A DNA stretch of 64,000 bases from an uncultured Candidatus Saccharibacteria bacterium (GCA_964648335.1 CAZYLZ010000006.1:3974-67973); one strand, 5' to 3'; counted from the first letter of the stretch, positions 3,566 through 37,128 are shown. Numbers and translations are program-made. The notes: generated from the sequence alone by a model not told the origin.

Positions 3566-6500
3566 CTATGGGCTTTCACCCCACGCACCGATAACGACCG
3601 ACGGCGGTGGAGGTGGTGGAGGTGGGGGCGGTGGGGGCGTATCGTCGTTCACTATCGTGCATTGCTTCGTTTCGCCTGCGGCTATGGTTCCACTGCATAG
3701 AGGTCCGAGCGTCTTTGCGTAGCCCGCGACTCCCGGCTCTTCATCTACGGTGTAGGCCCCCGGGTCGAGCACGACCGAAACTCCCGGCGAATCGGTACCG
3801 GGAAATGTAGCCTGGCTCACGTTGGTGCCCGAGACCGTCATCGTAAAGTCCGCTGCGACCGACGATCCGGTGTTGTCGTTGACCACGTGCTTTACCACGT
3901 AGATGGTGCCCGTGGTCGGCGGCGGCGGCGGTACTATGGCCGCCGCAGGACACACCTGCGCTCCGATAAAACTAAAGATACCTTGCATGTCTGCGGACGT
4001 CGGCGAGATAAAGAAGTTGTCGCCGTCGCCGTTTTCTTGCACTACTTGGTAGTACACCCTAACCGGGATGTGATCGAGATAGAAGTCGCGCGTGTTTACC
4101 GTCGCGTTAGAAGTCACGCGCACGCGGAACTTGCTTTGGTCGAAGTCGCCCTGCGTCCAGCTGCGACCCCACGTGTCGCCACTGTTACCCAAGACACCGA
4201 CATGCGAATGTGATGTCGATTCTCCCGAGTCGGTCTTAGAAACCCAGTTGGCACCCGCGTTGTACGAGAGCTCTACGCGCAGGCTGTTCGTTCCCGTTAC
4301 CGAGTCAAGCCACCAGTTGGGCCGAACTTCGATACCGGTGATGACCGCGTTTGGTGGAACAGAGAGACCGTATCCAGAATAGACATGGCGATCCCCTGCT
4401 CCGTCGGTATTCTGCGCTGCAACGTCGTCGTCCACATACGCTTTGTCGGGACTCACCTCGAAGCCGTTGCCGTCTCCTCCCGAGTCAGCAACATTGCCTG
4501 CGGGCGACTGCAACCCAGTATCGCCGTTAATTATTCCGGTCGTGTCGAAGAACGAGCCGTCGGCGTGCGGCGCATTCGTAACGGTTCCGCTTGCCAGACC
4601 TGCCAAAAGCGCACGTCCTGCAGTAGCACCGTAGTGGATGGTAAAGATGGTCGTTCCGCTTGCTTTTGCGGCGTCGGCTGCAGAGTAGGCCTGTGCGACA
4701 GGATCGGTGACAATGCTCCAGCTCACAACCGCATACAGATGTGTCACTCGCGGTACGGTACCGCCCGACGAAGTATTGAGTACGCCAAAGTGCGTCGTCC
4801 AGTTGTTTACTTCGGCAACGGTCCATGCGCCACCTAGAGGATTAGACGACATCGTCCATGTGTAGTCCGTGTAGTTTGATGAGAGGTTGTGCCCTACATC
4901 CACGGCCTGGGTGATGCTGTTCTCTGCCACCAGCTGGATTGCACCGTTACTCCCTGCCGTCTCTTTTGCAATCGCATGCACTGTCACCCTAATGTTCGAC
5001 GCGTTTGCAGGCACGGTCGCATCGGGAAACGCATACGTCTGTGTTACCGCTCCTGCCGCGCTGTTTGATACATAGGTAGTATCGGAGTCGTTGGTAGAAA
5101 CAGCCGCTACCGACGTTCCGGTGTTTGCGATCCAGGCCGTGTATCCGCCGATTGTTTGGGACTGTACCGTCGCACTGCCGGGGATTGTGTAGTAGACCTT
5201 GGTCTGCACCTGGTCGACCGAGAGCGTCGAATTGTTGGTGCACGAAAAGCCTGGGTCTACGTTCTCGAGTCGTGCGGTAAAGTTGGTGCTGTTGATCTCG
5301 GCTGGAGTCCAGGTGCGCCCCCAGGTGTTGGTGCTGCCACCGAACACCAACACCTGATCGCTGCTGCCGAGACCCGCAACATCGTTTGCCGTGAACGTAG
5401 TGCCGTTGGGAGCCAGATCGATATCGAGCTCGCATCCAGACGAGTCGCTCGACTTGGCTTCTGCTGTAACTTCGATACCGACAATAGTCGCCGTAGGCGG
5501 CACCAGGAATCCGAAGTTAGCGTACCGTTGTCGGTGCCCTGCTACCGCGTCCGTCGCATACTGGTTGTCGCTCGTAAACGCGCGCGTCGCGTTGGCAAAC
5601 TGGTCGACACCACCTTGAGCAGTAGCTGCCGCCGGCGCATTAAACCCGACCGAGCCGGCAATCGTGTACGACACAACGGCGTACACCTGGGTTACGCGCG
5701 GAGTGGTCGCTCCTGTCGATGCGTTAAGTACACCGAACTTGTAGCTCCACGCATTCACGTCTGCCACAGTCCACGATCCACCGAACGGATCTGTCGCCAT
5801 GGTCCAGGTGTAATCGGTGTACGTACTCGACAGCGAGTGCCCCGCATCGGCAACAAGGGTTCCTGCATTTTCTGCCACCAATACCACAGTGCCTGTTGTA
5901 CCACCGGTCTCCTTGGCGATCGCATGAAGCGTCACCGAAATATTGGTAGCGCCCGCGGGAATACCGGCATTTGCCAAAAGGTATGTCTGGGCCTGGACCG
6001 CCGTATTGATATACGAGACATCGCCATCATTTGTGTTTATCGCCGTCACCTTCGTACCGTTGTTCGCGCTCCACCCGCTATAGGTACCGAGTGCCGATGC
6101 TTGCAAAGTTTGCGAACCGGGCGTCGATCCAGAAGGCTCGTTAGGATCGCCATCAGAGACGAGAATGAGTACTTTCTGTTTCGATGGATCGTGCCGCGGG
6201 CCGTTCAGTTCGTCGTTGGCGACAGTGATCGCCGCCGAAAGATCGCTGCCCACCGATGAGTTCGATCCGGTGATCGAGTTTATGGCACTTTTGACGGTGG
6301 CGTAAGCATTGCTGAGAACTCCATTAGCGGGGATTGACGCTGCTGAGCCGTTGAGTCCGCCAAAGCTGCCTGCGCCGATCTTAGGTAGTGTTACCACGCC
6401 GGAATAGAGATTCACCAGAGCTGTCGCGGCAGCATTTTCGTCAGCGCGATCGGTCGAACTCATGCTCCCCGAACGGTCGAGTATCACCACCGTATCGGCG

Positions 6501-7483
6501 CAGGCCGGCGTCGGTGGCGCCGTATCATCATAGGTGATGATACAGGTCTTGTTTTCGCCTGCCGCAAGCGAGATGGACGAGCTTCCTGCACAATGATACC
6601 CCCATGCGCTCTTGGTATAGCCTGGTACGTTCGGAGCGCTCACGGTGTGCCCTCCGGGAGCGAGCGTGTACGGCTGGCCCGGCACCCGGACCACGCCGTC
6701 GATCGAAAGCGCGAAATCTGAGACAGTGCTCGTTCCTGCGTTGTCGTTGATAACGTTAGCTATGACACTGAGCTTGGCAGTCGTCGGGATGTCGTCGTTG
6801 AGCGCAAGACATGTCTTGATCTCGCCCGCAGCGACCGTGCCCGAACAGCCGGCGCTCAGCGTACGCGTATAGCCCGAAACCGCTGACTCAGTAACTTGGT
6901 ACGACCCCGCGTCGACCGTAACCGCGACACCGGTGTCAGATCCTGCAAATGACGAAAGCGAAACTGCGGTACCGGTCACGTTCATGGTGAAGTCGGCGGA
7001 CGCATGGGTTCCGTCATCGTCGTTTACCGTCTGCGTCACGACGAAGATGGTCCCGTGCGTCGGTGACGTTGCCGGGTTTTGAACGGTTGCAGAGACCTCC
7101 ATCTCGGTGAATGCGCCTTTGTACGATGCCTTGGTATGCACGAGTGCTTTCTTCTGAGTCGCATCAATCACGGTATATGTGACGCCCGTGATAAGGCAGG
7201 TGCCGTCGCCAACACTCACCGGCACTCCGCCGAGTGCCGAATCATAGGCAGGATCGGTCATCGGCGTGTAGGTGTAATCTTTCGCGACCTTGAGGAGCCC
7301 CGCATTGACGCACGATTCGGAAAGCCCGAGCGAGATGCGCTTGAACTCCTGGTCGAGCGCGTCGAAGCGCGAGAACAGTCCGGTCGCGCTTGCCGACGAG
7401 ACGAGCCCCATGAGCACCAACGACAAAATGATCGCTGTCATGAGCGCGATGTAGCCGCGAGATCCGGTTGCGTTTTGTTTCAT
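3566..7483 (-). CDS. Giant (1305 aa) pilus-associated vWA-domain protein, GspK/PilY1-like tip adhesin candidate, with C-terminal poly-proline tract
   Basis: N-terminus SRGYIALMTAIILSLVLMGLV is pilin-like but lacks Glu5, as in GspK-type minor pilins. vWA MIDAS motif VVILDRSGSMSS ... LILVSDGDPNE. Repeated beta-rich domains. Ends with 12 consecutive Pro. It sits inside the pilin operon. Confidence 0.65.
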   Translation of the reverse strand: MKQNATGSRGYIALMTAIILSLVLMGLVSSASATGLFSRFDALDQEFKRISLGLSESCVNAGLLKVAKDYTYTPMTDPAYDSALGGVPVSVGDGTCLITGVTYTVIDATQKKALVHTKASYKGAFTEMEVSATVQNPATSPTHGTIFVVTQTVNDDDGTHASADFTMNVTGTAVSLSSFAGSDTGVAVTVDAGSYQVTESAVSGYTRTLSAGCSGTVAAGEIKTCLALNDDIPTTAKLSVIANVINDNAGTSTVSDFALSIDGVVRVPGQPYTLAPGGHTVSAPNVPGYTKSAWGYHCAGSSSISLAAGENKTCIITYDDTAPPTPACADTVVILDRSGSMSSTDRADENAAATALVNLYSGVVTLPKIGAGSFGGLNGSAASIPANGVLSNAYATVKSAINSITGSNSSVGSDLSAAITVANDELNGPRHDPSKQKVLILVSDGDPNEPSGSTPGSQTLQASALGTYSGWSANNGTKVTAINTNDGDVSYINTAVQAQTYLLANAGIPAGATNISVTLHAIAKETGGTTGTVVLVAENAGTLVADAGHSLSSTYTDYTWTMATDPFGGSWTVADVNAWSYKFGVLNASTGATTPRVTQVYAVVSYTIAGSVGFNAPAAATAQGGVDQFANATRAFTSDNQYATDAVAGHRQRYANFGFLVPPTATIVGIEVTAEAKSSDSSGCELDIDLAPNGTTFTANDVAGLGSSDQVLVFGGSTNTWGRTWTPAEINSTNFTARLENVDPGFSCTNNSTLSVDQVQTKVYYTIPGSATVQSQTIGGYTAWIANTGTSVAAVSTNDSDTTYVSNSAAGAVTQTYAFPDATVPANASNIRVTVHAIAKETAGSNGAIQLVAENSITQAVDVGHNLSSNYTDYTWTMSSNPLGGAWTVAEVNNWTTHFGVLNTSSGGTVPRVTHLYAVVSWSIVTDPVAQAYSAADAAKASGTTIFTIHYGATAGRALLAGLASGTVTNAPHADGSFFDTTGIINGDTGLQSPAGNVADSGGDGNGFEVSPDKAYVDDDVAAQNTDGAGDRHVYSGYGLSVPPNAVITGIEVRPNWWLDSVTGTNSLRVELSYNAGANWVSKTDSGESTSHSHVGVLGNSGDTWGRSWTQGDFDQSKFRVRVTSNATVNTRDFYLDHIPVRVYYQVVQENGDGDNFFISPTSADMQGIFSFIGAQVCPAAAIVPPPPPTTGTIYVVKHVVNDNTGSSVAADFTMTVSGTNVSQATFPGTDSPGVSVVLDPGAYTVDEEPGVAGYAKTLGPLCSGTIAAGETKQCTIVNDDTPPPPPPPPPPPPSVVIGAWGESP

Positions 7484-9974: not shown

Positions 9975-11255
9975 TTAGCCGTGCAAGCTTTGCGTAATGC
10001 CATAAATAGGAGTGATGATCGATACCGCGATGAATCCGACGAGAAGCCCCATGAAGATCATGAGCAAAGGCTCGATCAGTGTGGAGATATCTTTGGCGAA
10101 GTCGTCGACTTCGTTCTCGTAAAGGTCCGAGAGGTAGAGGAGCGTGTTCGAGAGGTTACCCGTCTTCTCACCAACTGCTACAAGTTGGGCGAGGATGTCG
10201 GGAAAGACGTTGCGATGGGCTGCCAGGTAAGTCGACATCCGCTCGCCGCGGTTGATCGTGTGCGCAAGCGCGCGGAAGTGTCGCTTGTAAACCAGATTCT
10301 GCGAAGTATCTGCGGTCAGGGGAAGTGCTTCTGACAAGGTGACGCCACCCTTGAGCATGATACCGAGCGTGCGCGTCGCGTTTGCAAGATTGTAGTACTG
10401 CACCATCTTTCCGACGAGAGGAATTTGGAGCAGGAATCCATGGAAGTACATGCGACTCGCCTTGTTCTTCTTGATGAGGATCGAGAAGGCGGTCACGAAA
10501 AGAACTATCCCCGCGGATAGCGCGAAACCACTCTTCTGCAAGAAATTGCTGATTGCTATGACGATCTGAGTCGACATTGGCAAGGTCATGTGGAGGCTCG
10601 AGAAGATCGGCATAATCTTCGGGAACAGATAGACCATGAGGAAGATCGTTATGCCGACAGTCGCCGTCGTGATGAGCGCCGGGTACACCAACGCACCGAT
10701 CACCTTGCGGCGGAGGATCTGCTTCTTCTTGAGTTCGTCGGCAAGATAGTCGAGGTTCTCGCTCAATACCCCGCTCGACTCACCCACTTTTATGATGTTG
10801 ATCGCAAAATCACCGAACACGTGCGGGAATTTTCCGAAGCTTTTGGAAAGCGCCTGGCCCTGCGACGTGTCTTCTATAATTTGGTCAAGTATGCGGCGGT
10901 GGCTGCGGGTGCGCGATTGCGTGCGCAAGATATGGAGGCTCTCGAGCATCGGAACGCCTGCTCGGGTAAGGAATGAAAGACGCTTGGCAAAGAATGTCTG
11001 CTCTTTTATAGCGAGTCGCGGCGCGACATACTGATCCATCATCATCGCGAGCCTGGTGAAGCGAGACCGGTCGTCATAGCTACGCTTTACCGGAAGCGCT
11101 TTCGGTTCGTCGGGCTCGGGTTCGGTCGGGTCGGTGGGATTGCCGGGCAGCTTCGGGAAGAACGAGAGCTTGGCCGGCTGTCGTCGTACTCGCTCGCCCG
11201 CTATCGAAAACAATATGCGAGCGATGTTCTCGAAGGGTGCGGTTGCGATGTTCAT
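9975..11255 (-). CDS. pilC: Type IV pilus assembly platform protein PilC / GspF family
   Basis: Two GspF-type repeats with polytopic membrane segments, 426 aa, directly downstream of the ATPase gene. Confidence 0.8.
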   Translation of the reverse strand: MNIATAPFENIARILFSIAGERVRRQPAKLSFFPKLPGNPTDPTEPEPDEPKALPVKRSYDDRSRFTRLAMMMDQYVAPRLAIKEQTFFAKRLSFLTRAGVPMLESLHILRTQSRTRSHRRILDQIIEDTSQGQALSKSFGKFPHVFGDFAINIIKVGESSGVLSENLDYLADELKKKQILRRKVIGALVYPALITTATVGITIFLMVYLFPKIMPIFSSLHMTLPMSTQIVIAISNFLQKSGFALSAGIVLFVTAFSILIKKNKASRMYFHGFLLQIPLVGKMVQYYNLANATRTLGIMLKGGVTLSEALPLTADTSQNLVYKRHFRALAHTINRGERMSTYLAAHRNVFPDILAQLVAVGEKTGNLSNTLLYLSDLYENEVDDFAKDISTLIEPLLMIFMGLLVGFIAVSIITPIYGITQSLHG

Positions 11256-11256
11256 A

Positions 11257-12504
11257 TTATTCGTGAATGACGCGTAATACCTCCTCGAGCGTTGTGAGAC
11301 CTGCCTCGACTTTCTTGAGTCCGTCGTCGAACATCGTCGTCATACCGTTCTTTATGGCGATATTTTTTATGTCTGCCGACGATGCACGCGCGAGGATCGC
11401 CTCACGGATCTCGGCATCGGCGACGAGCACCTCGTTGATACAGAGACGTCCGGAATAGCCGCTTCCATTGCAGGAGGCGCAGCCCGCTCCGCGGTGAAGC
11501 TTGGTCTTAGGGTCGATAGTACGGCCGGTCGTGAGCAAGAGATGCTCGCGCAAGGCGTCGGTGAACTCGGTCTCTTCCTTGCAGTCCGAGCAGATTTTGC
11601 GCACGAGTCGCTGGCCGATCGCGATGGAGACCGTCGTCGCAACCAAGAATCCTTCGATCTTCATGTCCAACAGACGTGGAATGGTCGTCGCCGCGTCGTT
11701 GGTATGTACGGTAGAGAGAAGGAGGTGTCCGGTGAGCGCTGTATTGACCGCGATACCAGCGGTCTCGGCATCACGGATCTCGCCGACCATGATGACATTT
11801 GGGTCCTGGCGCAAGATACTCCGAAGACCATTGGCAAACGTAAGCCCGGTGCGTGCGTTAACTTGTATTTGCTCTATGCCGTCGACGGAATACTCGATCG
11901 GGTCTTCGATGGTGATGATGGAAATGTCCGGCGACTTGAGCATCCGCACCAGCGTATACAAGGTAGTCGTCTTTCCCGATCCAGTCGGACCAGTCGCGAG
12001 AATCATGCCGGTCGGCTTCTTGATTGCCTGCAAGATCTTGCGTTTGTCTTCGGGACTGAACCCAAGGTCGTCGAGCGTAAAATCTTCGGCATTGCTCGAA
12101 AGGAGGCGCAGCACCGCATTCTCTCCGTGATACGTAGGACAAATCGAGACACGGATGTCGATGAAGGCTGTCTCGCCCATAGTGTGCCGGATGCGGCCAT
12201 CTTGTGTAGCGTTGTGCTCGTCAGTGCGTAACGATGCGAGAACTTTTATACGCGAAATAACCTCGCCGTGGATCTCTTTAGGCAAGAGGCACACCTGTTG
12301 CAACACGCCATCGACGCGAAAGCGGATGCGGACGCCTGTAAGGCTCGGGTCGATATGGATGTCTGAGGCGCGCATCTCGCTCGCCTTCTCGATGATGGCA
12401 TCGACGACATTTATGATGGAGCAATTGATTCCCCGAGCAAGCTCGAGGTCGAGTTTGCTTATGAGCACGTGCGAATTTATTTTTGGAATTACGGTATCCA
12501 TAGC
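11257..12504 (-). CDS. pilB: Type IV pilus assembly ATPase PilB/GspE family
   Basis: Walker A GPTGSGKTT, a tetracysteine CSDC...CASC zinc motif typical of GspE/PilB, and a GSPII N-domain. Start could be 12504 or the upstream Met at 12588. Confidence 0.8.
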   Translation of the reverse strand, partial: AMDTVIPKINSHVLISKLDLELARGINCSIINVVDAIIEKASEMRASDIHIDPSLTGVRIRFRVDGVLQQVCLLPKEIHGEVISRIKVLASLRTDEHNATQDGRIRHTMGETAFIDIRVSICPTYHGENAVLRLLSSNAEDFTLDDLGFSPEDKRKILQAIKKPTGMILATGPTGSGKTTTLYTLVRMLKSPDISIITIEDPIEYSVDGIEQIQVNARTGLTFANGLRSILRQDPNVIMVGEIRDAETAGIAVNTALTGHLLLSTVHTNDAATTIPRLLDMKIEGFLVATTVSIAIGQRLVRKICSDCKEETEFTDALREHLLLTTGRTIDPKTKLHRGAGCASCNGSGYSGRLCINEVLVADAEIREAILARASSADIKNIAIKNGMTTMFDDGLKKVEAGLTTLEEVLRVIHE

Positions 12505-12646
12505 GTGCAGAATTCTGTCGTAGCGGCCAATCAGACAGCGGAAATTTGCTGTAGGACATTTATACGCCCAGAGGGCCTCTACCCGCAACCAAAAACGCGT
12601 GGTTTGCTATGCGAAAGGTGGCGCAAAACAGCACTACACCACGCTT

Positions 12647-14933: not shown

Positions 14934-17900
14934 TTACGGATTCATCTGTGCGAGCCCCTGCTTCATCGTGACGACCGGGATGCCGTTTGCGACAAGATAG
15001 TTTACGTAGGTCTGGAAGTCTTCAGGAGTTGCTCCGTACTGATCGTTCTGATGATCGATCTGGTGGTACATGAGGATGAGCCACGTGTGGTTTGTCATCG
15101 CGGTCTCCGTCCACTGTTGCCACGTCGCAGCAGTCGTCGATGCATTCACCTCTTGTATCATGAGCTTGTACTTGTCGGTGGCCTTGTTGTTGTAGCCTTG
15201 GTCGACAGTGCGCGCAGCGACGTAACCGGCACTCTTTACAATCGCATCAGTGGTTGCGTTGTAGTCTCCATACGGATAGACGAAGGTATCTGCTGGCGTG
15301 ATGCCGATAGCATTGAGGTCTTGCTTAGCTCCGAGGATCTCGTCAGTAGCCGACGCTGCCGACAGGGTCGTCAAAAACGGATGCGTACGGGTGTGCGACG
15401 AGACTTCGTGGCCCGAAGCGAATATCTGCTGGACCTGCGCGGTGTTCATGTAGTCCTGCGCGATGTCGAGGTGAACGTCGTCGACCGTGAGTGATCCTGC
15501 CGTCGCGATCTTGTGATACACAGCCACGGTCTTGGTGTTAGCAGGCGGAATGAAGGTAAATGCCGCAGTCGCCCAGACAGCCGATGCTGGCACGGTACCG
15601 AGGTCTACCGTCTGCGTCGTGTTGTTCGTGAGTGTGTAGCGGACTGACACCGTGGTCGGGACCGTCGCCATGTAGCGATCGGTGTAGTTGTGCGCCTCGG
15701 CAGAAACGAGCGTCATCTCGTCAGGTTGCCACTGCGCACTGCCGCTCGCAAGCGATGCAACATCGATCTTGACGGCTTTCGCTCCCAGAACTCCGGCGAC
15801 CGGGTACGTGAAGGTCGTGGTGCTGACACCGGTCTTGATCGCAGTCCAGTTCGCTGGCGTCGTCGACGAGAGTGCGACTTCGAATGATGGATTATCGACG
15901 CGATTCTGGTTGATCGCCTCCTGCATCGACTTGGTGATGATAAAGAAGCTTCCTTTGAGACCAGCAGCATTCAGCATCTGATAGGCCGTGTCGTACTGCG
16001 ATCCCCATCCGTCGTCGAAGGTTATCGTGACGAATCCAGCGGGGAAACCATTGGGCCCCGGATCGATCGTCGAAGCCGCCTGCAGCCGAAGCGCCGCATT
16101 ATCGATAGTCAGCGAGCCGTTGCCGTTGATGAGGTGGAAGATGGTGACCTTGGTGCTCGATGCCGGCGGCGTAAACGCCTGCAGTACCGACGTCCAGCTT
16201 GCCGATGGCGCGATGTTGAGCGTGATATCCGAGTAGACGAACGAGTTATCGGAAAGTGTGTAGCGTGCGGTCAGGGTCGAGGTTGCGGTAGAGGTGTACT
16301 GGTTCGAGTATTCGTAGACCTGGCCGGGCGTTACCGCGACGTCCTCGAAGTACCATTTCGCATCGCCGTCGGTTCGGTTAGCCATCGAGACCGAAGCGGC
16401 AGCCGCGCCGTCGATACCCGCTACCGGGTAGCTGAAGGTTGTCGAGCTCGTACCCCAACCGCCCTGGAACCAGTGGTCGGGCACACCCACGACAGTCGCG
16501 GTCTCGAGCGACGGATTCTGAATGAGGTTTGGATTCTGAGGAGTCGGTGGGATGTAGAAGGTATTGAAGGTGACGGTCGACGCGTTGCCGATGTTGTTGG
16601 CAGCATCGGTCGCATATGCAGTGATCGTGTGCGAGCCATTCTTGAGAGCCTTGATCGGAATCTGCACGGTGTAGGGAGCTGCTGTAAGCTCTCCGACGAT
16701 GTGGTCGATACCGTTCGTGACTTCGTAGTGCACCGCAGTAACGGCGACGTTGTCGCTTGCCGCAAAGATGAGTGTCGTCGTCGCTGCCAGGATGGAACCG
16801 GTCGTCGGCTGCGTAATTGATACGACAGGTGCTTGCGTGTCGGGTATCGGATTGTTGACGGTAACGGTGATCGGAGTCGTCGATGCTGCGTTGTTGGCTG
16901 CGTCCTTGGCCTCTGCATAGACCGTGTGCGATCCATTAATAAGTGCCGTCGTGTCGAAGGTCATCGAATACGGCGCGGTCGCGTCAACTCCGTACGACGC
17001 ACCATCGACGAAGAACGTGACCTGCGTCACCGCGACATTGTCACTTGCTGTTGCCGTGAGCGATGTAGAAGTACCGACGACGGTTGCGTTAGCGGTTGGT
17101 GATGTCAGGGCTACAGTCGGCTTGGTTGTGTCTGCAGTCGTCGTCGAGTTCGATACGGTGAATGTCGCGGTGGTAGAGGTACCGATGTTCCCTGCGGCGT
17201 CGCGCGCCTGTGCGTACACCGTATGCGAACCGTTTGTGATTGATGTGGTGTTCACCGAGAGTACGTACGGAGCGGTCGTCGATTCGACTCCGAATGGTAC
17301 GCCATCGACGATGAAGCGGACTCCTGCGACAGCAACGTTATCCGAAGCGGTCGCCGAGAACGATGCTGTGCCGGAGAGGGTCGCACCCGAGGCTGGCGAC
17401 GTAAGCGCTGCGAGCGGCTTGGTGGAGTCAGGCGTCGAGGTCGCGCTGCCGGGGGCAGTGAGTGATGCGTTGTCGATTGTGAGCGTACCTACCGCGTTAA
17501 GTCCATGGAAGACGGTCGCCTTTACCGTGCCTGCGGGCGGCGTGAAGGTCCGTGTTATGTGTGTAAATCCGGAAGAAGCAGGTGCGGCACCGAGATCGAG
17601 ATAACTGTAGGTCGGCGTCGCGGTCTCGTATTGTACGGTGACGAAACTCGAACCGGTCGACTGGTAGTCGTCCTGGAAGGTATAGGTCGTGCCTGGGGTG
17701 ACAGCAACCGGCGTAAAGTACCACTTCGCGTCTCCCGAGGTGAATGCCGTGACCTGGAGCTTTGCGCCATTACCGGCCGCACCCGCCGACGGATACGTGA
17801 ATGTGCGAGTAAGCGTACCCCATCCACCCTGTGCCCAACCCAAGGGCAACGCTCCGTTTGCCGTCTCGAACGTGCCGTTGGTTATGAGATTGGATCCACT

Positions 17901-18752
17901 CGGAGGCACGACAATGACGTTGGAAACAGTGACCGCGACTGATGCCGAGGTCGCGTTATTTGCCGATGTATCGCGTGCTCGTGCAGTGATGGCATGCGCA
18001 CCGTTGGCGAGCGACGCGGTGTTAAGCGAAATGGAGTACGGCGCCGACGTGTCTTCGGCTCCCGTTGCGACACCGTCCACCAAGAACTGAACGCCAGCGA
18101 CCGCTACGTTGTCCGCAGCATTTGCCGAGAGTGTTACCGTTCCCGAGATCGTGGCACCTGCAGTTGGAGCAGTCACCGATACCGTAGGAACTACGCTGTC
18201 GGTCGATGTTGCGTTCGACGTTACCGAGGCGTTATCGATCGTGAGCGTACCTACCGACGACAGTCCGTGGAAGACAGTCGCTTTCACGACGCCAGCCGGA
18301 GGTGTGAACGTGCGCGTGATATGTGAAAACCCTGCCGAGGCGGGCGCGGCCGTAAGCGAAGCATAGCTATAGACCTGTGCTGCTGTCTCGTACTGAATCG
18401 CAAGGAAACTCGAACCGGTCGACTGGTAGTCGTCCTGGAAGGTATAGGTCGTGCCTGGGGTGACAGCAACCGGCGTAAAGTACCACTTCGCGTCTCCCGA
18501 GGTGAATGCCGTGACCTGGAGCTTTGCGCCATTGCCCGTCATTCCGGGAGCGGGGTACGTGAAGGTCTTGGTGTTAGTTCCCCATCCGCCCTGTGCCCAT
18601 CCTAGGGGCAGCGCTCCGTTTGCAGTCTCGAAGTCGCCGTTCACGACGAGGTTTGCCGCTGCAGTTGCTGCGAACGGATTAATGAGGATAAAGCCAGCGA
18701 TGGCGGTGAGGACCAGGAGCCCTACGAGACTTGCTCTGAGTGCGCGGTTCAT
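14934..18752 (-). CDS. Giant secreted polysaccharide deacetylase (CE4/NodB domain) fused to multiple CBM-like and Ig-like domains, IcaB/PgaB-like
   Basis: C-terminal NodB motifs FVTITFDDGWGS, GHEVSSHTRTHP, ILMYHQIDH. Several NLVVNGDFE..GGWG carbohydrate-binding-module-like domains. Repeated Ig-like domains (TVSVTAPTAGATISGT..). Signal peptide. Confidence 0.75.
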   Translation of the reverse strand: MNRALRASLVGLLVLTAIAGFILINPFAATAAANLVVNGDFETANGALPLGWAQGGWGTNTKTFTYPAPGMTGNGAKLQVTAFTSGDAKWYFTPVAVTPGTTYTFQDDYQSTGSSFLAIQYETAAQVYSYASLTAAPASAGFSHITRTFTPPAGVVKATVFHGLSSVGTLTIDNASVTSNATSTDSVVPTVSVTAPTAGATISGTVTLSANAADNVAVAGVQFLVDGVATGAEDTSAPYSISLNTASLANGAHAITARARDTSANNATSASVAVTVSNVIVVPPSGSNLITNGTFETANGALPLGWAQGGWGTLTRTFTYPSAGAAGNGAKLQVTAFTSGDAKWYFTPVAVTPGTTYTFQDDYQSTGSSFVTVQYETATPTYSYLDLGAAPASSGFTHITRTFTPPAGTVKATVFHGLNAVGTLTIDNASLTAPGSATSTPDSTKPLAALTSPASGATLSGTASFSATASDNVAVAGVRFIVDGVPFGVESTTAPYVLSVNTTSITNGSHTVYAQARDAAGNIGTSTTATFTVSNSTTTADTTKPTVALTSPTANATVVGTSTSLTATASDNVAVTQVTFFVDGASYGVDATAPYSMTFDTTALINGSHTVYAEAKDAANNAASTTPITVTVNNPIPDTQAPVVSITQPTTGSILAATTTLIFAASDNVAVTAVHYEVTNGIDHIVGELTAAPYTVQIPIKALKNGSHTITAYATDAANNIGNASTVTFNTFYIPPTPQNPNLIQNPSLETATVVGVPDHWFQGGWGTSSTTFSYPVAGIDGAAAASVSMANRTDGDAKWYFEDVAVTPGQVYEYSNQYTSTATSTLTARYTLSDNSFVYSDITLNIAPSASWTSVLQAFTPPASSTKVTIFHLINGNGSLTIDNAALRLQAASTIDPGPNGFPAGFVTITFDDGWGSQYDTAYQMLNAAGLKGSFFIITKSMQEAINQNRVDNPSFEVALSSTTPANWTAIKTGVSTTTFTYPVAGVLGAKAVKIDVASLASGSAQWQPDEMTLVSAEAHNYTDRYMATVPTTVSVRYTLTNNTTQTVDLGTVPASAVWATAAFTFIPPANTKTVAVYHKIATAGSLTVDDVHLDIAQDYMNTAQVQQIFASGHEVSSHTRTHPFLTTLSAASATDEILGAKQDLNAIGITPADTFVYPYGDYNATTDAIVKSAGYVAARTVDQGYNNKATDKYKLMIQEVNASTTAATWQQWTETAMTNHTWLILMYHQIDHQNDQYGATPEDFQTYVNYLVANGIPVVTMKQGLAQMNP
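17644..17771. repeat. 128-nt exact intragenic duplicate (copy 1), within a ~390-bp diverged CBM-domain duplication
   Basis: Identical to 18405..18532. The flanking ~130 bp on each side are similar but diverged. Confidence 0.85.
18405..18532. repeat. 128-nt exact intragenic duplicate (copy 2)
   Basis: Identical to 17644..17771. Confidence 0.85.
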
Positions 18753-29820: not shown

Positions 29821-30126
29821 ATGTCGATAATGGTACTTATGCTCGGGGCCAAGGGTCCTGGCAACGTCACCGAGTGGCGAGTCGATACGGTAGAGCCGTT
29901 CGACTCGAAAGAGTTCCAGCGGATCGGGATCAAGAACACACGAGTTGAAGCGTTTCTAAAGGCGCAGCTCGCGGATGCCTTCGTGACGACAGATCGCGAT
30001 CATGCCCTTTCGGTCGGCTTTTGGCTTGGTGAGACACATCCCTACTGGTCCGACTTCCACGGAAAGTTGGTGGATATGTGGATCACGGTACTCGACTATT
30101 CGGCTACGGATGGGTTTCCTGTCTGA
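29821..30126 (+). CDS. Hypothetical protein (101 aa)
   Basis: aaggag RBS. Terminator hairpin ccaccgtacggtgg plus T-run at 30131-30160. Confidence 0.45.
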   Translation: MSIMVLMLGAKGPGNVTEWRVDTVEPFDSKEFQRIGIKNTRVEAFLKAQLADAFVTTDRDHALSVGFWLGETHPYWSDFHGKLVDMWITVLDYSATDGFPV

Positions 30127-30160
30127 TATGCCACGGCCACCGTACGGTGGTCTTTTTTTA

Positions 30161-30286
30161 TCCCGAGAGTGGGACTCGGCCAAGAACATTCTTAAACGCC
30201 GACGCGTTCAAGAATTTCTCGGCCCTGATTCTGCGACCAGGCCTACTGGCCTAGTACGCGCAGAATCGTTCGAGTCCCACTCTCGG
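30161..30286. repeat. ~125-nt compound inverted-repeat structure whose outer arms are copies of the tRNA-Leu(TAA) 3' end
   Basis: ccgagagtgggactcg at 30161-30176 and its reverse complement at 30270-30285. A 21-nt tRNA-sense copy gttcgagtcccactctcggca lies at 30265-30286. Two nested internal hairpins at 30177-30221 and 30225-30267. Confidence 0.7.
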
Positions 30287-30297
30287 CAAAAACAATA

Positions 30298-30321
30298 CGG
30301 CCTGCAAACATGTTTGCAGGC
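30298..30321. terminator. Perfect 24-nt palindrome ggcctgcaaacatgtttgcaggcc (bidirectional terminator candidate just 3' of tRNA-Leu)
   Basis: Perfect palindrome followed by T-rich sequence on both strands. Confidence 0.55.
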
Positions 30322-30334
30322 CTACTGTTTTATG

Positions 30335-30421
30335 TGCCGAGAGTGGGACTCGAACCCACACGCCGTTTTAAGTCGGCAAGAGATTTTAAGTCTCTGACGT
30401 CTACCATTCCGCCATCTCGGC
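30335..30421 (-). tRNA. tRNA-Leu(UAA), type II with long variable arm
   Basis: Minus-sense GCCGAGATGGCGGAATGGTAGACG..AGAGACTTAAAATCTCT..variable arm..TGTGGGTTCGAGTCCCACTCTCGGCA. Anticodon TAA. CCA not encoded. Confidence 0.85.
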
Positions 30422-30424
30422 TTG

Positions 30425-30640
30425 AGATATTTAGAGGGATTCGGCCACCCGTAATTTGCTGGTGCAAATTCGGTCGGCCCCCGCTCGTCCTCGTCAGGAC
30501 TCCGCGATGCGAATCCCTCCCGTCATGTGCCTATGCACATGACTTCAGGCTCCCTCATGGGATTCGGGAGGCCTGAGAGGGATTCGCACCCTCGCATAGT
30601 AGTTTTGCAGACCACCGCGTTTACTTCTTCGCCATCAGGC
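30425..30640. other. Highly structured intergenic region with four copies of GGGATTCG/CGAATCCC and several perfect hairpins (candidate ncRNA or tRNA-derived fragments)
   Basis: gagggattcg (30434) pairs with cgaatccctc (30509). Hairpins aatttgc-tggt-gcaaatt, tcatgtgc-ctat-gcacatga, gaggg-attcgca-ccctc. The reverse complement TGCGAAT loop resembles a T-loop. Confidence 0.35.
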
Positions 30641-30745
30641 CGTAGCAGGCAGTATAAATCATGAATGGCATAGTCCAAAATGCTTGAGTAGTGCCGCCCC
30701 ATCAGCATGGTTAAATTGAGTCCAGGAAGCATACAGGAGAAACTA

Positions 30746-31408: not shown

Positions 31409-31445
31409 GGTCCCGCGCACATGCTGCGCGGGACCACATTATTTG
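31409..31445 (+). terminator. Rho-independent terminator
   Basis: ggtcccgcgcacatgctgcgcgggacc followed by acattatttg. Confidence 0.65.
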
Positions 31446-31543
31446 ACACATTTCTAATGTACAGTCGAGGTAGTTTAGTGTTAGATACAAAGAGACACTT
31501 CCATCCGGAGGTGGAAAAGAGAAGTAACAACAGGAGAAGTATC

Positions 31544-33388
31544 ATGTGCGGAATCGTCGGATGCATAGGCGCCAAGCCAGCACTCCCCATGCTCTATGCA
31601 GGTCTCAAAGACCTCATGTATCGCGGGTACGACAGTGCAGGTATCGCGACCTTCAACAACGACTCTATCGTGCGCGCTCGCGTTCAAGGTGCGCCTTTGA
31701 AGCTCAAACACAAGCTCAAGCACCTTCCGCAAGACGCCACGGTCGGTATCGCTCACAACCGGTGGGCCACTCACGGCAAGCCGGCCGAACGGAATGCGCA
31801 TCCGCATACCTCGAGCGGCAACATGGTCGCGGTGGTCCATAACGGAATCATCGAGAATCATGATGAACTTCGAGACGAGCTGATCGCCCAAGGCTGCCGC
31901 TTTCAGAGCGAAACCGACACCGAGGTCATCCCGAACCTAATCGAACGAGAAATCGTTGCCGGCGCGAGGGATTTAACCCAAGCTGTCGAGCGCATCGTTC
32001 CCCGGCTCAAAGGCGGCTTCGCGATCGCGGTCATCTCGAGCCTCTTCCAAGACGAAGTCGTGCTCGTTCGATCGGGCATGCCTCTCATAATCGGAGCGGG
32101 TATCGGTGGCGTCTATTTTGCCTCAGACGAGACCCCGCTTGTCGACTATGTGAAGGAAGTGGTTCAGATGGTCGACGGCGAGATAGCTACTCTCTGTCGC
32201 GACGGAACCTTCCAGATTGCACGTAAACGACTGCCGAAGAATTCAGACCGGAGGCGGCCGCTGCGCGTACAGAAAGGAACAACTGGAAAGGACGGGCACA
32301 AGTACTACATGTTCAAAGAGATCATGGAACAGCCCGAATCCGTGCGAAATGCCATCCGCGGACGACTCTTCGATGGCACCGTGGTACTGCCCGAGCTCGA
32401 TCTGATCGAGGATAAGATCAGAAATGCGTCGTGCGTTACCCTGGTCGCCTGCGGCACCTCGAAATATGCTGGAGCAGTCGCTCGACTCGCATTCGAGAAG
32501 CTTGCGCGCGTGAAGACGATGCTCGAAGAAGCATCCGAGTATCATACGCGCGAAGCCCTTGTCCAAGACGGAGAGCTCGTCATCGGCATCTCCCAATCGG
32601 GAGAGACCGCCGACACCTGCCTTGCGCTCGAATACGCCAAGAACCGCAATGCCACGTGCATCGCAGTAGTGAACCGACAGGGCTTCAAGCTCGGCGACAT
32701 CGCTGATGCCGAGATCGGAGCGCTTGCGGGTCCCGAGATAGCAGTAGCCTCTACCAAAGCTTTTACGGCCCAGGTGGTGGTGCTCATTCTCTTGGCGATG
32801 CGCGTAGCGACAATCCGTGGGACGCTTACCGACTACGATCGTCTTCGGCTCGTCGAGAGCCTCGAGAACCTACCAGAGGCAGTCGAAGAAGTGCTCAAGT
32901 ACGCCAATGTGATGCGAAACGTCGCAAAATCGTATCTTGCGGCACCCAGAACGCTCTTCATCGGACGCGGCTATTGTGTGCCGATCGCCGACGAAGGAAC
33001 GCTCAAGCTCCAAGAGATCGGCTATGTCGATGCTGCTGCCTACTCGGCAGGAGCGCTCAAGCACGGACCCTTGGCTCTCGTCGAGGACGTGATCCCTGTA
33101 ATCGCAATCGCGCTTTCGGGAACGGCGTCGGACAAGACCTTAAACAGCGTGCAGGAAGTGGTCGCACGCAGCGGGCACATCATCGGCATCGTCACGAAAG
33201 GGTCAGCAGAAGAGGAGCTCATGCGGAAGCTCGCGAAGGTCCTGATAAGCCTTCCAAACACTGCAGAGGAGCTCTCGCCTATTCTTGCGGCGCCACTCGT
33301 TCAGCTCTACGCGTACTACAGCGGCGTGCTTCGTAAGCACAACGTTGATCGTCCGCGTAATCTCGCAAAATCGGTGACGGTCGAATAA
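31544..33388 (+). CDS. glmS: Glutamine--fructose-6-phosphate aminotransferase
   Basis: Starts MCGIVGCIG (N-terminal Cys nucleophile), followed by two SIS domains. aggaga RBS. Confidence 0.9.
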   Translation: MCGIVGCIGAKPALPMLYAGLKDLMYRGYDSAGIATFNNDSIVRARVQGAPLKLKHKLKHLPQDATVGIAHNRWATHGKPAERNAHPHTSSGNMVAVVHNGIIENHDELRDELIAQGCRFQSETDTEVIPNLIEREIVAGARDLTQAVERIVPRLKGGFAIAVISSLFQDEVVLVRSGMPLIIGAGIGGVYFASDETPLVDYVKEVVQMVDGEIATLCRDGTFQIARKRLPKNSDRRRPLRVQKGTTGKDGHKYYMFKEIMEQPESVRNAIRGRLFDGTVVLPELDLIEDKIRNASCVTLVACGTSKYAGAVARLAFEKLARVKTMLEEASEYHTREALVQDGELVIGISQSGETADTCLALEYAKNRNATCIAVVNRQGFKLGDIADAEIGALAGPEIAVASTKAFTAQVVVLILLAMRVATIRGTLTDYDRLRLVESLENLPEAVEEVLKYANVMRNVAKSYLAAPRTLFIGRGYCVPIADEGTLKLQEIGYVDAAAYSAGALKHGPLALVEDVIPVIAIALSGTASDKTLNSVQEVVARSGHIIGIVTKGSAEEELMRKLAKVLISLPNTAEELSPILAAPLVQLYAYYSGVLRKHNVDRPRNLAKSVTVE

Positions 33389-34051: not shown

Positions 34052-34296
34052 TAGATGCCTCCTGCGTTGATACATAGCCACAAAGAAAATACTATTTATT
34101 GTCGATTTGTCAAATCGGCAATCCATCATGCACGCGTATGCAAAAAGATGCTTTCTGCACAATTCTCAGCTATCGGCCGAGTCATATTTTTTGTTAGTTT
34201 GTGGGTAGAGGAGCTCGGTCACGACTCTCAATCTGCCGTCGCAGATTTCGGTCGCGACCCCGCCTCGCGGTTTTGCCTGCTGGCCAAACATCGCTG

Positions 34297-34341
34297 CGGC
34301 TTTCGAGTCTCCCTCGCGATGTGCTCAAGCACATCGCTTCT
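34297..34341. repeat. Inverted partial copy of tRNA-Leu(UAG) 3' end interrupted by a 22-nt perfect palindrome
   Basis: ttcgagtctccctc[gcgatgtgctcaagcacatcgc]ttctgccca in tRNA sense on the plus strand, 25 nt from the real tRNA 3' end on the minus strand. Confidence 0.65.
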
Positions 34342-34365
34342 GCCCATAATGTCACTTCGTTCCTG

Positions 34366-34447
34366 TGGGCAGAGGGAGACTCGAACTCCCATGCCTTGCG
34401 GCGTCGCGTCCTAAGCGCGGTGCGTCTACCAATTTCGCCATCTGCCC
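34366..34447 (-). tRNA. tRNA-Leu(UAG)
   Basis: Minus-sense GGGCAGATGGCGAAATTGGTAGACGC..CCGCG CTTAGGA CGCGA..GGGAGTTCGAGTCTCCCTCTGCCCA. Anticodon TAG. Confidence 0.8.
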
Positions 34448-34536
34448 GTCCAGCCGAGTATAGCGCACCTGGCCTGTTTTCAAAACGAAATAACCTGTTA
34501 GAATAGCCCTCGTATCGGCAAAGGCTTATACAGTAT

Positions 34537-34609
34537 GCGCCCGTAGCTCAGTTGGTAGAGCAGCCGCCTCTTAAGCGGTAGGTCCATGGTTCGAGTCCAT
34601 GCGGGCGCA
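34537..34609 (+). tRNA. tRNA-Lys(CUU)
   Basis: GCGCCCGTAGCTCAGTTGGTAGAGCAGCCGCCTCTTAAGCGGTAGGTCCATGGTTCGAGTCCATGCGGGCGCA. Anticodon CTT. Confidence 0.9.
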
Positions 34610-34619
34610 CCGGAGACAA

Positions 34620-34650
34620 AAAGGACTGGCCTGTGCCAGTCCTTTTTGCG
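34620..34650. terminator. Bidirectional terminator hairpin
   Basis: aaaaaggactggcctgtgccagtccttttt. Confidence 0.7.
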
Positions 34651-34756
34651 AGGTGCGAGCCGGAGCAGCTTGGCTACGAATCACCTCGATGGTGGCAGGA
34701 GGGAGCCTGCCGAGCCCGGGCCGTGCGCGTTTATAGCAAGAAACCACGCTAGGCCA

Positions 34757-34797
34757 CGAAAATACAAAATCCCCTGTGGGGATCTTTGTATTTTATT
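34757..34797. terminator. Terminator hairpin at end of minus-strand small-protein array
   Basis: atacaaaatcccctgtggggatctttgtatttt. Confidence 0.6.
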
Positions 34798-34805
34798 TTG
34801 GTTCC

Positions 34806-34985
34806 TCATCGGACGTCTGCAGACTCCGCGAGGCTCCGGGTGTATTCTTCGAGCCTCTTACGATTCTCTTGTATCGCCTTCTCCAAGTTCGCAAGGCAGC
34901 GCCGGGCATGTGCCAGGTCGCGCTCGCGCGCCGCTATCTCGCCTCGATACCACGTAACCTCCTGTTGTATGTGTTGCGTATTCAT
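34806..34985 (-). CDS. Small coiled-coil protein P1 (59 aa; not in ORF table because <60 aa)
   Basis: Reverse translation MNTQHIQQEVTWYRGEIAAREADLAHARRCLANLEKAIQENRKRLEEYTRSLAESADVR. Paralogous pattern with the next two genes. Confidence 0.4.
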   Translation of the reverse strand: MNTQHIQQEVTWYRGEIAARERDLAHARRCLANLEKAIQENRKRLEEYTRSLAESADVR

Positions 34986-35963: not shown

Positions 35964-36323
35964 CTAGAAGCTCGTGCCCTGGAGCTGAATCGCCTTAGGG
36001 ATGATTGGATCGGTCGAGGTGACCTTGAAGGTGCTCTGCAAGAGACGGATGATACCCCAGACCGACACCATGACGAAGAGCGAAAGGATGCCGTAGATCA
36101 TAATGTCGCGTGCCTTCTCCTTCGACTCGTCTCCAGAGCCGATGTACTGGATGAGTCCCCAAAAGAAGTAGATGAGCGCCAAAGTGATCAGCATCGGTAT
36201 GACCGCGTTCAAGACCGTGTTCACCAAGTTGAGGGTGTCGAGAAACGTTACTGCTCCAGCCACTGCAGGGATCGTTACTGCTGCGATGGCGAGTGCTCCT
36301 GCGAGCTTGGGGCTAAAGTTCAT
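35964..36323 (-). CDS. Small secreted two-TM membrane protein M2 (VirB2/TrbC-like topology)
   Basis: Signal peptide MNFSPKLAGALAIAAVTIPAVAGA, TM1, loop GSGDESKEKARD, TM2. Confidence 0.5.
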   Translation of the reverse strand: MNFSPKLAGALAIAAVTIPAVAGAVTFLDTLNLVNTVLNAVIPMLITLALIYFFWGLIQYIGSGDESKEKARDIMIYGILSLFVMVSVWGIIRLLQSTFKVTSTDPIIPKAIQLQGTSF

Positions 36324-36362
36324 ACGGGGCGATTAGTTAAAGCTAGTGATATAGATACCATT

Positions 36363-36746
36363 TTACCCCCGAAGCGTCTCTTTAGGTTCTGCCGCTGTGG
36401 ATAGCATATGTGCATCGGGCCCTCGAGCGCTTCCAGCGGCGTCAAGGCTACTCTGGAGGATGCGCAGTATCCCCCAGATGGACACGGCTACGAACAGGAT
36501 GAGTATGCCCCAGCCGAAAATCTGCGACCGCTTAGCAAGACCGCCCTCTTCGAGATTCTGCGTCGAGTTGAATCCGATCCACATATAGTAGACAACCATG
36601 AGCGTAAGGATGGTCGGTATAAGCAAATCTATGATGCCGACGAACCAATTGACCAGATCGTCGAACGTCTTAGGTGCGGCAAAGGCCACCGCCGGCATCA
36701 CTATCAAGATGGCGAGGAGGAAGGTTATGCGTCGTGTGTACGCCAT
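36363..36746 (-). CDS. Small secreted two-TM membrane protein M3
   Basis: Signal peptide ..MPAVAFA|AP, TM1, loop NSTQNLEEGGLAKRSQ, TM2. Confidence 0.5.
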   Translation of the reverse strand: MAYTRRITFLLAILIVMPAVAFAAPKTFDDLVNWFVGIIDLLIPTILTLMVVYYMWIGFNSTQNLEEGGLAKRSQIFGWGILILFVAVSIWGILRILQSSLDAAGSARGPDAHMLSTAAEPKETLRG

Positions 36747-36747
36747 A

Positions 36748-37128
36748 TTAGCCGCGCAGCTGCTCTACGGTTCCTGCCAGTATTTGCGAAAGGGCCCACG
36801 CACCCAATATCATGATCGCTCCAATGACGACGTACAGGAAGTTGCGCTTTGCCGCCTCGATGCCGCTCGAGTTGCCGCGTGCAACCACAAACTGGAACCC
36901 AGCGTACACAATGAATACGCTGATGATGGGGAGCGAGATTGTGACTAGTGCTTTCAAAAGGCCCGATATGAATTCGGGGAAGGAGCAGAATTGGAGCGGG
37001 TTACTGAGACGCCCAGCATCGTTGGAACCGCATGCAGCGAATGTCGGGGTCACGCCTGCAAGCCACAGGCAGGTCGCCGAAGCGGCTAACGTACCGACCT
37101 TGTCATATGTCGAGGTAAATAGTTTCAT
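36748..37128 (-). CDS. Small secreted two-TM membrane protein M4 (possible lipobox FAAC)
   Basis: Signal peptide with TFAAC, TM1, loop ARGNSSGIEAAKRN, TM2. Confidence 0.5.
   Translation of the reverse strand: MKLFTSTYDKVGTLAASATCLWLAGVTPTFAACGSNDAGRLSNPLQFCSFPEFISGLLKALVTISLPIISVFIVYAGFQFVVARGNSSGIEAAKRNFLYVVIGAIMILGAWALSQILAGTVEQLRG

Follow-up and report, generated by a model that had tools for sequence, protein, structure and literature searches.

A structured element that mirrors the 3' end of its tRNA lies behind the tRNA genes of an uncultured, deep-branching bacterium and recurs in metagenomes and Oxalobacteraceae

The stretch of DNA analysed here (64,000 nucleotides, referred to as the window) contains four tRNA genes, none of which (0/4) encodes the CCA 3' end. 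They were identified with ARAGORN and the Rfam tRNA model.

30334-30421, minus strand: tRNA-Leu(taa), host gene of the third member of the family described below.
30567-30641, minus strand: tRNA-Cys(gca), host gene of the second member.
34365-34447, minus strand: tRNA-Leu(UAG), called by ARAGORN, with 53.6 bits for the Rfam tRNA model at 34366-34447 (start at 34365/6).
34537-34611, plus strand: tRNA-Lys(ctt), host gene of a degenerate fourth member.

The tRNA-Cys and tRNA-Leu(taa) genes are 145 nt apart with no evident promoter between them, and are therefore probably co-transcribed across one of the elements. Both programs call only these four true tRNAs, which disposes of a tRNA gene or pseudogene on the opposite strand as an explanation for what follows.

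Directly 3' of tRNA-Leu(UAG), and on the same strand, lies a non-coding structured element of about 150 nt. The sequence mirrored in it is the tRNA segment from the T-loop to the 3' end (segment A). Going downstream from the tRNA, the following parts can be distinguished.

34347-34364, minus strand: spacer from tRNA to element, AGGAACGAAGTGACATTA (sequence comparison by eye).
34339-34346, minus strand: acc', TGGGCAGA, the complement of the acceptor 3' strand and the discriminator.
34316-34337, minus strand: hp0, GCGATGTGCTTGAGCACATCGC, a hairpin with 10-nt arms between the acceptor complement and the T-arm complement.
34302-34315, minus strand: T', GAGGGAGACTCGAA, the exact complement (14 nt, 100%) of the T-loop, the T-stem 3' strand and the first two acceptor bases.
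34223-34301, minus strand: core, a closing stem (GCC..GGC) round hairpin 1 (AGCA loop), then hairpin 2 (GACG loop), as defined by folds and by covariation in alignment A3.
34203-34222, minus strand: A2, GACCGAGCTCCTCTACCCAC, a decayed direct copy of the tRNA 3' end that pairs with T' and acc' and closes the element.
34197-34349, minus strand: the whole element, as matched by the covariance model (137.5 bits).

The inverted partial copy that the initial annotation had placed behind tRNA-Leu(UAG) is real. Positions 34302-34315 of the plus strand, TTCGAGTCTCCCTC, are the exact reverse complement of 34372-34385, a tRNA segment that covers the T-loop and the 3' strand of the T stem and reaches two bases into the acceptor strand. 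The 22-mer comes next (34316-34337) and, separated from it by a single junction base, TCTGCCCA (34339-34346) copies the acceptor 3' strand and the discriminator. Read on the tRNA strand, the order is the acceptor 3' strand complement, a 10+2+10 hairpin and the exact 14-nt complement of the T-stem and T-loop. Two details had to be corrected: the 22-mer is not a perfect palindrome as described, consisting instead of two perfect 10-nt arms flanking a non-palindromic CA centre, and the gap to the tRNA 3' end measures 18-19 nt rather than 25 nt. Within this spacer, GAACGAAGTGA resembles (by eye) a GAACGCAGTGA loop found at the equivalent position in several metagenome copies. The initial annotation covered no more than the first third of the element and missed both inner hairpins as well as the direct copy of the tRNA end further downstream. 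The feature first seen is the 5' module of the longer element.

Related units lie behind the other three tRNA genes, and a separate hairpin accompanies one of them.

30423-30555, minus strand: second member, filling the spacer between tRNA-Cys and tRNA-Leu(taa) (covariance model, 103 bits), with acc' at 30545-30554, hp0 at 30522-30543, T' at 30508-30519 (12/12 exact), a core, and A2 at 30433-30444.
30158-30307, minus strand: third member, 3' of tRNA-Leu(taa) (covariance model, 66 bits; a copy outside the seed), with an exact 21-nt complement of the tRNA 3' end at 30268-30288 and no embedded hairpin, a two-hairpin core, and A2 at 30160-30179.
30299-30322, no strand assigned: bidirectional terminator-like hairpin with A-run and T-run flanks, between tRNA-Leu(taa) and the inverted copy.
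34610-34772, plus strand: degenerate fourth member, 3' of tRNA-Lys(ctt) (covariance model, 27.6 bits, E 1.6e-6), with a recognisable type I core, decayed arms, and the tRNA terminator hairpin (34617-34648) in the hp0 position.

The idea that both tRNA-Leu genes share one architecture has to be corrected as well. The inverted copy does recur at tRNA-Leu(taa), but the palindrome there sits between the arms and is not embedded within the copy; hairpin and arms together make up an extended palindrome of about 88 nt, and the hairpin itself (30299-30322) qualifies as an intrinsic terminator. It is tRNA-Cys that displays the embedded-hairpin layout of tRNA-Leu(UAG). The hairpins at these two genes are related by the core ATGTGC-N4-GCACAT, which occurs at no other site in the window (0.2 expected). 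The 14-nt match at tRNA-Leu(UAG) and the 21-nt match at tRNA-Leu(taa) were reached by none of 5000 shuffles, the 12-nt match at tRNA-Cys was equalled by the best of 5000, and random 24-mers of the window seldom attain a match length of 10. Since shuffles and random window positions fall far short, the inverted-copy matches are not due to chance. A descent of the inverted arm from the tRNA 5' strand, by tandem tRNA duplication, was also considered and rejected: the T-loops of the window Leu and Cys tRNAs are non-palindromic, so that the arm is a true reverse complement.

Beyond the inverted segment, each trailer runs for about 100 nt further on the tRNA strand, first through two hairpins and then into a partly decayed direct copy of the tRNA 3' end. 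Because the inverted segment (A') pairs with this direct copy (A2), each unit forms a closed multi-helix fold of 130-150 nt. In the predicted fold the closing helix is the acceptor-stem sequence stacked on the T stem, lengthened by pairing between the T-loop copy and its complement. The 22-nt hairpin would branch off between the acceptor and T parts, just as the D and anticodon arms do in a real tRNA.

Structural support was sought in an alignment of 11 'type I' members (A3), which includes the window units at tRNA-Leu(UAG) and tRNA-Cys. The RNAalifold consensus contains 43 pairs, 30 of them with compensatory changes, and the outer pairs of hp0 covary across the family. Paired cells amount to 93.9%, compared to 74.2% in column shuffles (none of 500 reached the observed value) and 32-48% when the partners are slid. 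On the tRNA-sense strand G:T stands at 18 against 5 for A:C. The alignment thereby lends strong support to a structure on the tRNA-sense strand, and the bias points to a single strand of tRNA polarity as the active form, most simply an RNA. Changes are distributed unequally over the two copies of the tRNA end: in 344 positions, unilateral changes fall 25 times in the direct copy (A2) and 5 times in the inverted one, i.e. five times more often in A2. The corresponding pairing is 96% for the inverted arm with the tRNA (Watson-Crick), against a comparison value of 90%.

A covariance model built from A3, R1, matches 3' of all four window tRNAs. As it recovers the third unit, which is not in its seed, as well as the degenerate unit at tRNA-Lys, each of these tRNA genes carries a member of the family. 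Outside the window, R1 yields 83 matches in 62 metagenome loci and detects three units arrayed in tandem behind tRNA-Glu of Herbaspirillum seropedicae; 1.46 Mb of control DNA from unrelated genome loci gave no match. A pattern scan with the hairpin core plus the T-loop complement as query returned 62 metagenome loci, where about one would be expected by chance (a rough estimate). The scan gave 64 matches, of which 33 lie at most 80 nt 3' of a same-strand tRNA (Ser, Glu, Leu, Pro, Gln or His) and five are second units behind a first, so that 38 of the 61 non-chance matches follow a tRNA or an earlier unit. Nine more are truncated by contig ends, 14 lack an intact tRNA (several retain a tRNA 3' fragment), and the three chance matches lie inside coding-like DNA.

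Each copy is fitted to its own tRNA. Ahead of the hairpin lies, in every case, a complement of the acceptor 3' strand, the discriminator and, if encoded, the CCA of that tRNA; behind the hairpin lies a complement of the T-stem and T-loop of the same tRNA, and the direct copy is found about 100 nt further on. Other tRNAs on the same metagenome contigs (Tyr, Trp, Gly, Arg, Phe, Glu and more) show the same architecture with very different hairpin sequences. The position and size of the hairpin are thus constant, and ATGTGC..GCACAT marks one subfamily. Some contigs that look like those of small genomes have copies at almost all of their tRNAs. Several types of module are found in the inner part, and one tRNA species can bear different types in different genomes. 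The initial annotation had argued for a systematic mechanism over chance, and this is borne out by a family member at all four window tRNAs and by the recurrence at many tRNA species in metagenomes and in Herbaspirillum. The survey of other tRNAs and relatives that it proposed was positive wherever it was run. Many different tRNA species are followed by a member of the family, and the bacteria concerned include uncultured ones with small genomes as well as Oxalobacteraceae.

Copies can be single, tandem, nested or without an intact tRNA. The window units are single; tandem units are present in L149 (three), L117/L141, L087 and L091/L093, and orphan copies lie kilobases away from any tRNA. Many metagenome contigs end inside element arrays. 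Extra partial tRNA ends were found in L142, L089 and L117. One contig (L145 103-254, minus strand) carries a pseudo-tRNA-Ser with the element core within its T-loop, in the order tRNA 5' part, T-loop, short loop, T-loop complement, core and remaining T-arm; an intact tRNA-Ser follows about 25 nt downstream. As regards a possible MITE- or REP-like repeat, the core is conserved and copies are many, orphans included; the terminal arms, however, are copied from the local tRNA and not fixed. No protein is shared near the copies beyond local synteny (all-against-all comparison of ORFs within 4 kb of 48 non-redundant copies). Viral contigs, phage records and plasmids gave no match to the element, and a phage or plasmid origin was rejected on this ground.

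The window itself stems from a deep-branching bacterium of a thinly sampled lineage. No GlmS more than 46% identical to its own was found, and a search for glmS in species-representative genomes returned nothing above 42% identity. The window has type IV pilus genes, T4SS-pilin-like genes, gyrA and ftsAZ. The affinities of the organism are weak and may lie with the Patescibacteria. Four Logan and ENA contigs carry the exact or nearly exact glmS (three at 100%, one with a single mismatch in 2667 nt), and being essentially identical to the window they offer no useful variation. Searches with homologues of glmS and the HD protein gave one usable near relative, at 94% amino-acid identity (L085 1-20, corresponding to window 30551-30570), whose contig stops 17 nt past tRNA-Cys. 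Its tRNA-Cys is identical and the promoter is conserved; in the 17 nt of trailer that are visible (AAAAACGCAGTTTTTGG) the sequence diverges exactly at the tRNA-Cys 3' end. Several of the metagenome loci come, by their record names, from 0.1-0.2 um groundwater fractions.

Some features of the window were noticed in passing. A cluster of small genes (35964-37128, minus strand), three with T4SS_pilin (PF18895) matches, adjoins a solute-binding protein and a methyltransferase; together with PilB/PilC-like genes (9975-12588) such a cluster is typical of ultra-small uncultured bacteria. The longest glmS ORF begins 41 codons upstream of the conserved MCGI start (31421-31543), while the recorded product starts at 31544, and Rfam finds no glmS ribozyme upstream of this gene. 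Two very large ORFs encode 1272 aa with a C-terminal polysaccharide-deacetylase domain (14934-18752) and 1305 aa with no NCBIfam match (3566-7483, minus strand).

A cultured host is found among the Oxalobacteraceae, to which the metagenome tRNA-Glu loci belong; the GltX of these loci is 92% identical to a Herbaspirillum protein. In Herbaspirillum seropedicae (GCA_031454715.1; JAVDRJ010000001.1, about 45.4-46.1 kb; L149 6066-6700) a gltX-linked Ala/Glu tRNA operon is followed by a terminator and then by three tandem units of about 198 nt. The 22-nt hairpin in this array (L149 6176-6682) is identical to window 34316-34337 in 22/22 positions, while other family members have unrelated hairpin sequences in that place. 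Such identity across phyla points to a specific constraint on the sequence, such as a particular ligand, or to recent horizontal spread. Noviherbaspirillum and Janthinobacterium possess the same gltX-linked operon with the terminator only and no element. Collimonas retains a stump of the first arm only: in Collimonas sp. H4R21 (L150 4929-4995) the tRNA-Glu terminator is followed by TGGCGGCCACAAGT, which matches the first arm and the first hairpin bases of the Herbaspirillum-type element, and the DNA beyond is unrelated. This stump is either a deletion remnant or a clue to the insertion boundary.

The best reading of these data, which we hold at about even confidence, is a dispensable, self-propagating trailer element that is linked to its tRNA and imitates the acceptor/T-arm helix of that tRNA. 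The element would be transcribed as a tRNA trailer or by read-through, as the RtT repeat of the E. coli tyrT operon is. The transcript would fold into a tRNA-like junction and be excised and stabilised by the enzymes of tRNA 3'-end formation. As a dispensable repeat it would persist, spread to other sites and grow in tandem via the direct tRNA-end repeats. Its inverted arm would stay true to the neighbouring tRNA through hairpin-templated strand switching, and tRNA production would not need the element. This reading is favoured by the anatomy and fold, the R1 family matches, the covariation, the tandem, nested and orphan copies, the lack of a conserved neighbour protein, the empty sites in sister genera, the decay of A2 and the logic shared with RtT. 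Of the three mechanisms named at the outset, among which no choice was made there, a tRNA-targeting element, in the sense of an element tied to tRNA 3' ends, fits best; a terminator does not hold for the 22-nt hairpin. Some role in termination or 3' processing is possible. The third proposal, a processing signal, is likewise possible, though not required, as sister genera do without the element. Transcription may be weak, since a good terminator often separates the tRNA from the element. Some observations sit less easily with a selfish repeat. The closer maintenance of the inverted arm (5 vs 25 changes) could reflect selection for pairing with the tRNA, which would be functional, and one would not expect junk to accompany almost all tRNAs of a contig, as it does on some of them, where genomes are streamlined. 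The identity of the 22-nt hairpin between a betaproteobacterium and the window organism likewise implies a specific constraint.

The first two of these observations also bear on the main rival, in which the element is a host-beneficial cis-acting RNA module. Here, once RNA polymerase has read past the tRNA, the two complementary segments of the trailer would pair with the tRNA from T-loop to 3' end in a very long branched hairpin and serve as a fail-safe terminator or insulator, or a tRNA-like fold of the trailer would guide RNase P, RNase Z or exonucleases in defining the tRNA 3' end. The high and preferentially kept complementarity to the tRNA (96% Watson-Crick, better kept than the direct copy) speaks for such a module, as do the conserved, covarying structure and the presence at nearly every tRNA of some contigs. 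The spacer, too, extends the helix, either by A-run/T-run flanks or by the conserved loop. The predicted minimum-energy fold of tRNA plus trailer uses the long hairpin at -62.5 kcal/mol, compared to -52.8 kcal/mol with the cloverleaf enforced. The same pairing with the 3' half of the tRNA, however, would be in competition with the folding of the tRNA itself. Neither the 22-nt hairpin nor the long one is followed by a U-tract, and termination would do harm in the spacer of the probably co-transcribed tRNA-Cys and tRNA-Leu(taa) genes, which one member occupies. In sister genera, moreover, the same tRNA operon ends in a plain terminator, and the family includes decayed copies as well as copies remote from any tRNA. 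On balance we consider a host-beneficial module unlikely, though it is the most serious of the competing explanations.

The duplicated block itself suggests a further possibility, as it spans the T-loop to the 3' end, which is reportedly the classic extent of tRNA attachment sites. In a footprint of site-specific integration, A2 would be the displaced tRNA end (attR-like), and the inverted copy would be part of a small, non-autonomous element; folded as a single strand, this element would rebuild a double-stranded att site for a recombinase encoded elsewhere. The stacking of units behind one tRNA, the extra partial tRNA ends (L142, L089, L117), the core inside the T-loop of the pseudo-tRNA-Ser (L145), the variable presence between genera, and the strand-specific G:T bias, which would suit a single-stranded intermediate, all agree with it. 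The Oxalobacteraceae arrays do not, since a full tRNA 3' end is not found behind each of their tandem units, which makes them resemble tandem duplication rather than serial integration. The folded arm would give only half a recombinase core site, a free circle of 130-200 nt has no known precedent in bacteria, no integrase or other conserved protein lies near any copy, and phage, plasmid and viral collections gave nothing similar. Integration is accordingly judged improbable.

A purely mutational by-product, in which replication template switching at terminator hairpins extends palindromes into the tRNA 3' end, would account for the perfect inverted arm and for the one long palindrome of tRNA end, A-run, terminator, T-run and inverted copy at tRNA-Leu(taa) and in many metagenome copies, but it leaves unexplained the conserved hairpin at a fixed junction, the conserved, covarying two-hairpin core with its downstream direct copy, and the 22/22 hairpin identity across phyla, so that it appears highly improbable; largely refuted by the covariance-model results, palindrome extension survives only as a mechanism that maintains the inverted arm.

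The tRNA-linked trailer element favoured above is absent from Rfam and belongs to a widespread, structurally well-supported kind of RtT-like, tRNA-linked elements. At gathering score, Rfam recognises only tRNAs in the whole window. Scans at permissive settings, run on the two tRNA regions, the Herbaspirillum array and ten metagenome loci, add only noise and a sub-threshold match to sX4, and a literature search on the hairpin sequence and on tRNA-linked inverted repeats found nothing specific. T-boxes, retrons, bridge RNAs, group I/II introns, known self-cleaving ribozymes and a retroelement primer-binding site were considered as well, and none has a supporting feature. In practice, inverted and direct partial tRNA copies can mislead tRNA annotation, assemblers and genomic-island finders that look for att sites.

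A number of known systems share individual traits with the family. Intrinsic terminators are represented by the spacer hairpin at tRNA-Leu(taa), which is canonical, with A- and T-runs, as it is in many relatives. For lack of a U-tract behind it, the 22-nt hairpin is no terminator: GAGGGAGACTCG comes next on the transcribed strand, and the hairpin is absent from the terminator scan. mascRNA and viral tRNA-like structures (TLS) also mimic the acceptor/T-stem with a side arm, although the mimic in the window has no T-loop. Retroviral primer-binding sites equally comprise about 20 nt complementary to a tRNA 3' end, without a reverse transcriptase context in our case. Both likenesses are analogies only.

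tRNA att sites of integrative elements come closer. There, a direct repeat from T-loop to 3' end flanks the insert and inserts stack behind one tRNA, as in the present family; in the window, too, a direct repeat of the tRNA 3' part (D1, 174-nt spacing) flanks the insert. The att sites lack an inverted copy, however, whereas our inserts have one, are only 130-200 nt long and come with no integrase. No integrase or recombinase was detected in or beside the insert, which is non-coding and has no shared protein family within 4 kb; the neighbours in the window are glmS, an HD protein and small proteins without a Pfam match. Integron attC sites and the attP of CTX phage are strand-specific folded sites with two inverted segments and an extra-helical feature, and their integrated form consists of inverted copy, loop and direct copy. 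The family differs by having no linked recombinase and by targeting a tRNA end instead of attI or dif, and the resemblance is structural only.

The Xanthomonas sRNA sX4 (RF02223) may be a mis-scoped tRNA-linked element, judging from its model. The consensus consists of tRNA-Ser(CGA) with a 12-nt leader and a trailer of about 60 nt, and it contains a helix between the T-stem 3' strand and the trailer, the trailer part having no T-loop complement. Applied to a metagenome tRNA-Ser with the start of its element (L089 1835-1982), the sX4 model scores 49 bits, below the gathering threshold of 70 and mostly from the tRNA-Ser itself. At the sX4 locus, an RNA of 280-300 nt was detected by Schmidtke et al. 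(PMC3300014).

The closest known relative in kind is the RtT RNA (rttR; RF00391), the 178-bp repeat of the E. coli tyrT-tyrV operon, which follows the same logic and is not detectably homologous. It lies directly 3' of a tRNA on the same strand, with three tandem units after tyrV, and a direct copy of the tRNA 3' end concludes each unit. As in the window family, pairing of this copy with a complementary segment near the start closes a fold of several hairpins; in the Rfam consensus the partners are GGGGAAGGAU and, from the direct tRNA-Tyr 3'-end copy, AUCCUUCCCC. RtT is reportedly released from the tRNA precursor as a stable RNA. Its complement spans only about 10 nt (T-stem 3' strand and acceptor start), and RtT lacks the T-loop or CCA-end complement as well as the acceptor/T junction hairpin that characterises the window family. 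Searches with the RF00391 model (gathering score 45 bits) came back empty for window regions 30050-30700 and 34100-34850 (E up to 10), for Herbaspirillum (E up to 1) and for ten metagenome loci (E up to 0.1), and R1 in turn does not match the E. coli RtT locus. Because each model misses the other's elements, the likeness may be a case of convergence.

RtT is known from one tRNA in enterobacteria and has for decades been an orphan curiosity of a single E. coli operon, whereas elements that are linked to a tRNA and mirror it are widespread: they are present behind many tRNA species, on 60 or more metagenome contigs, behind all four window tRNAs and in Herbaspirillum, which is cultured. They offer a testable handle on what RtT-like RNAs do, on how tRNA operons end in reduced genomes and on how short non-coding elements acquire sequence tailored to their insertion site, and experiments are feasible because Herbaspirillum seropedicae is cultured and genetically tractable. 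A bolder view, offered tentatively and with clearly less than even confidence, is that of a new structured nucleic acid that programs itself with the host tRNA. A conserved scaffold (junction hairpin plus two-hairpin core) would take its arms from the tRNA 3' end in both orientations and would imitate the acceptor/T helix or clamp the tRNA, either as a self-retargeting mobile element carried along by tRNA transcription and processing or as an unrecognised device for termination and 3' maturation. In both cases small-genome bacteria would use it at most of their tRNA genes, with RtT as its enterobacterial analogue.
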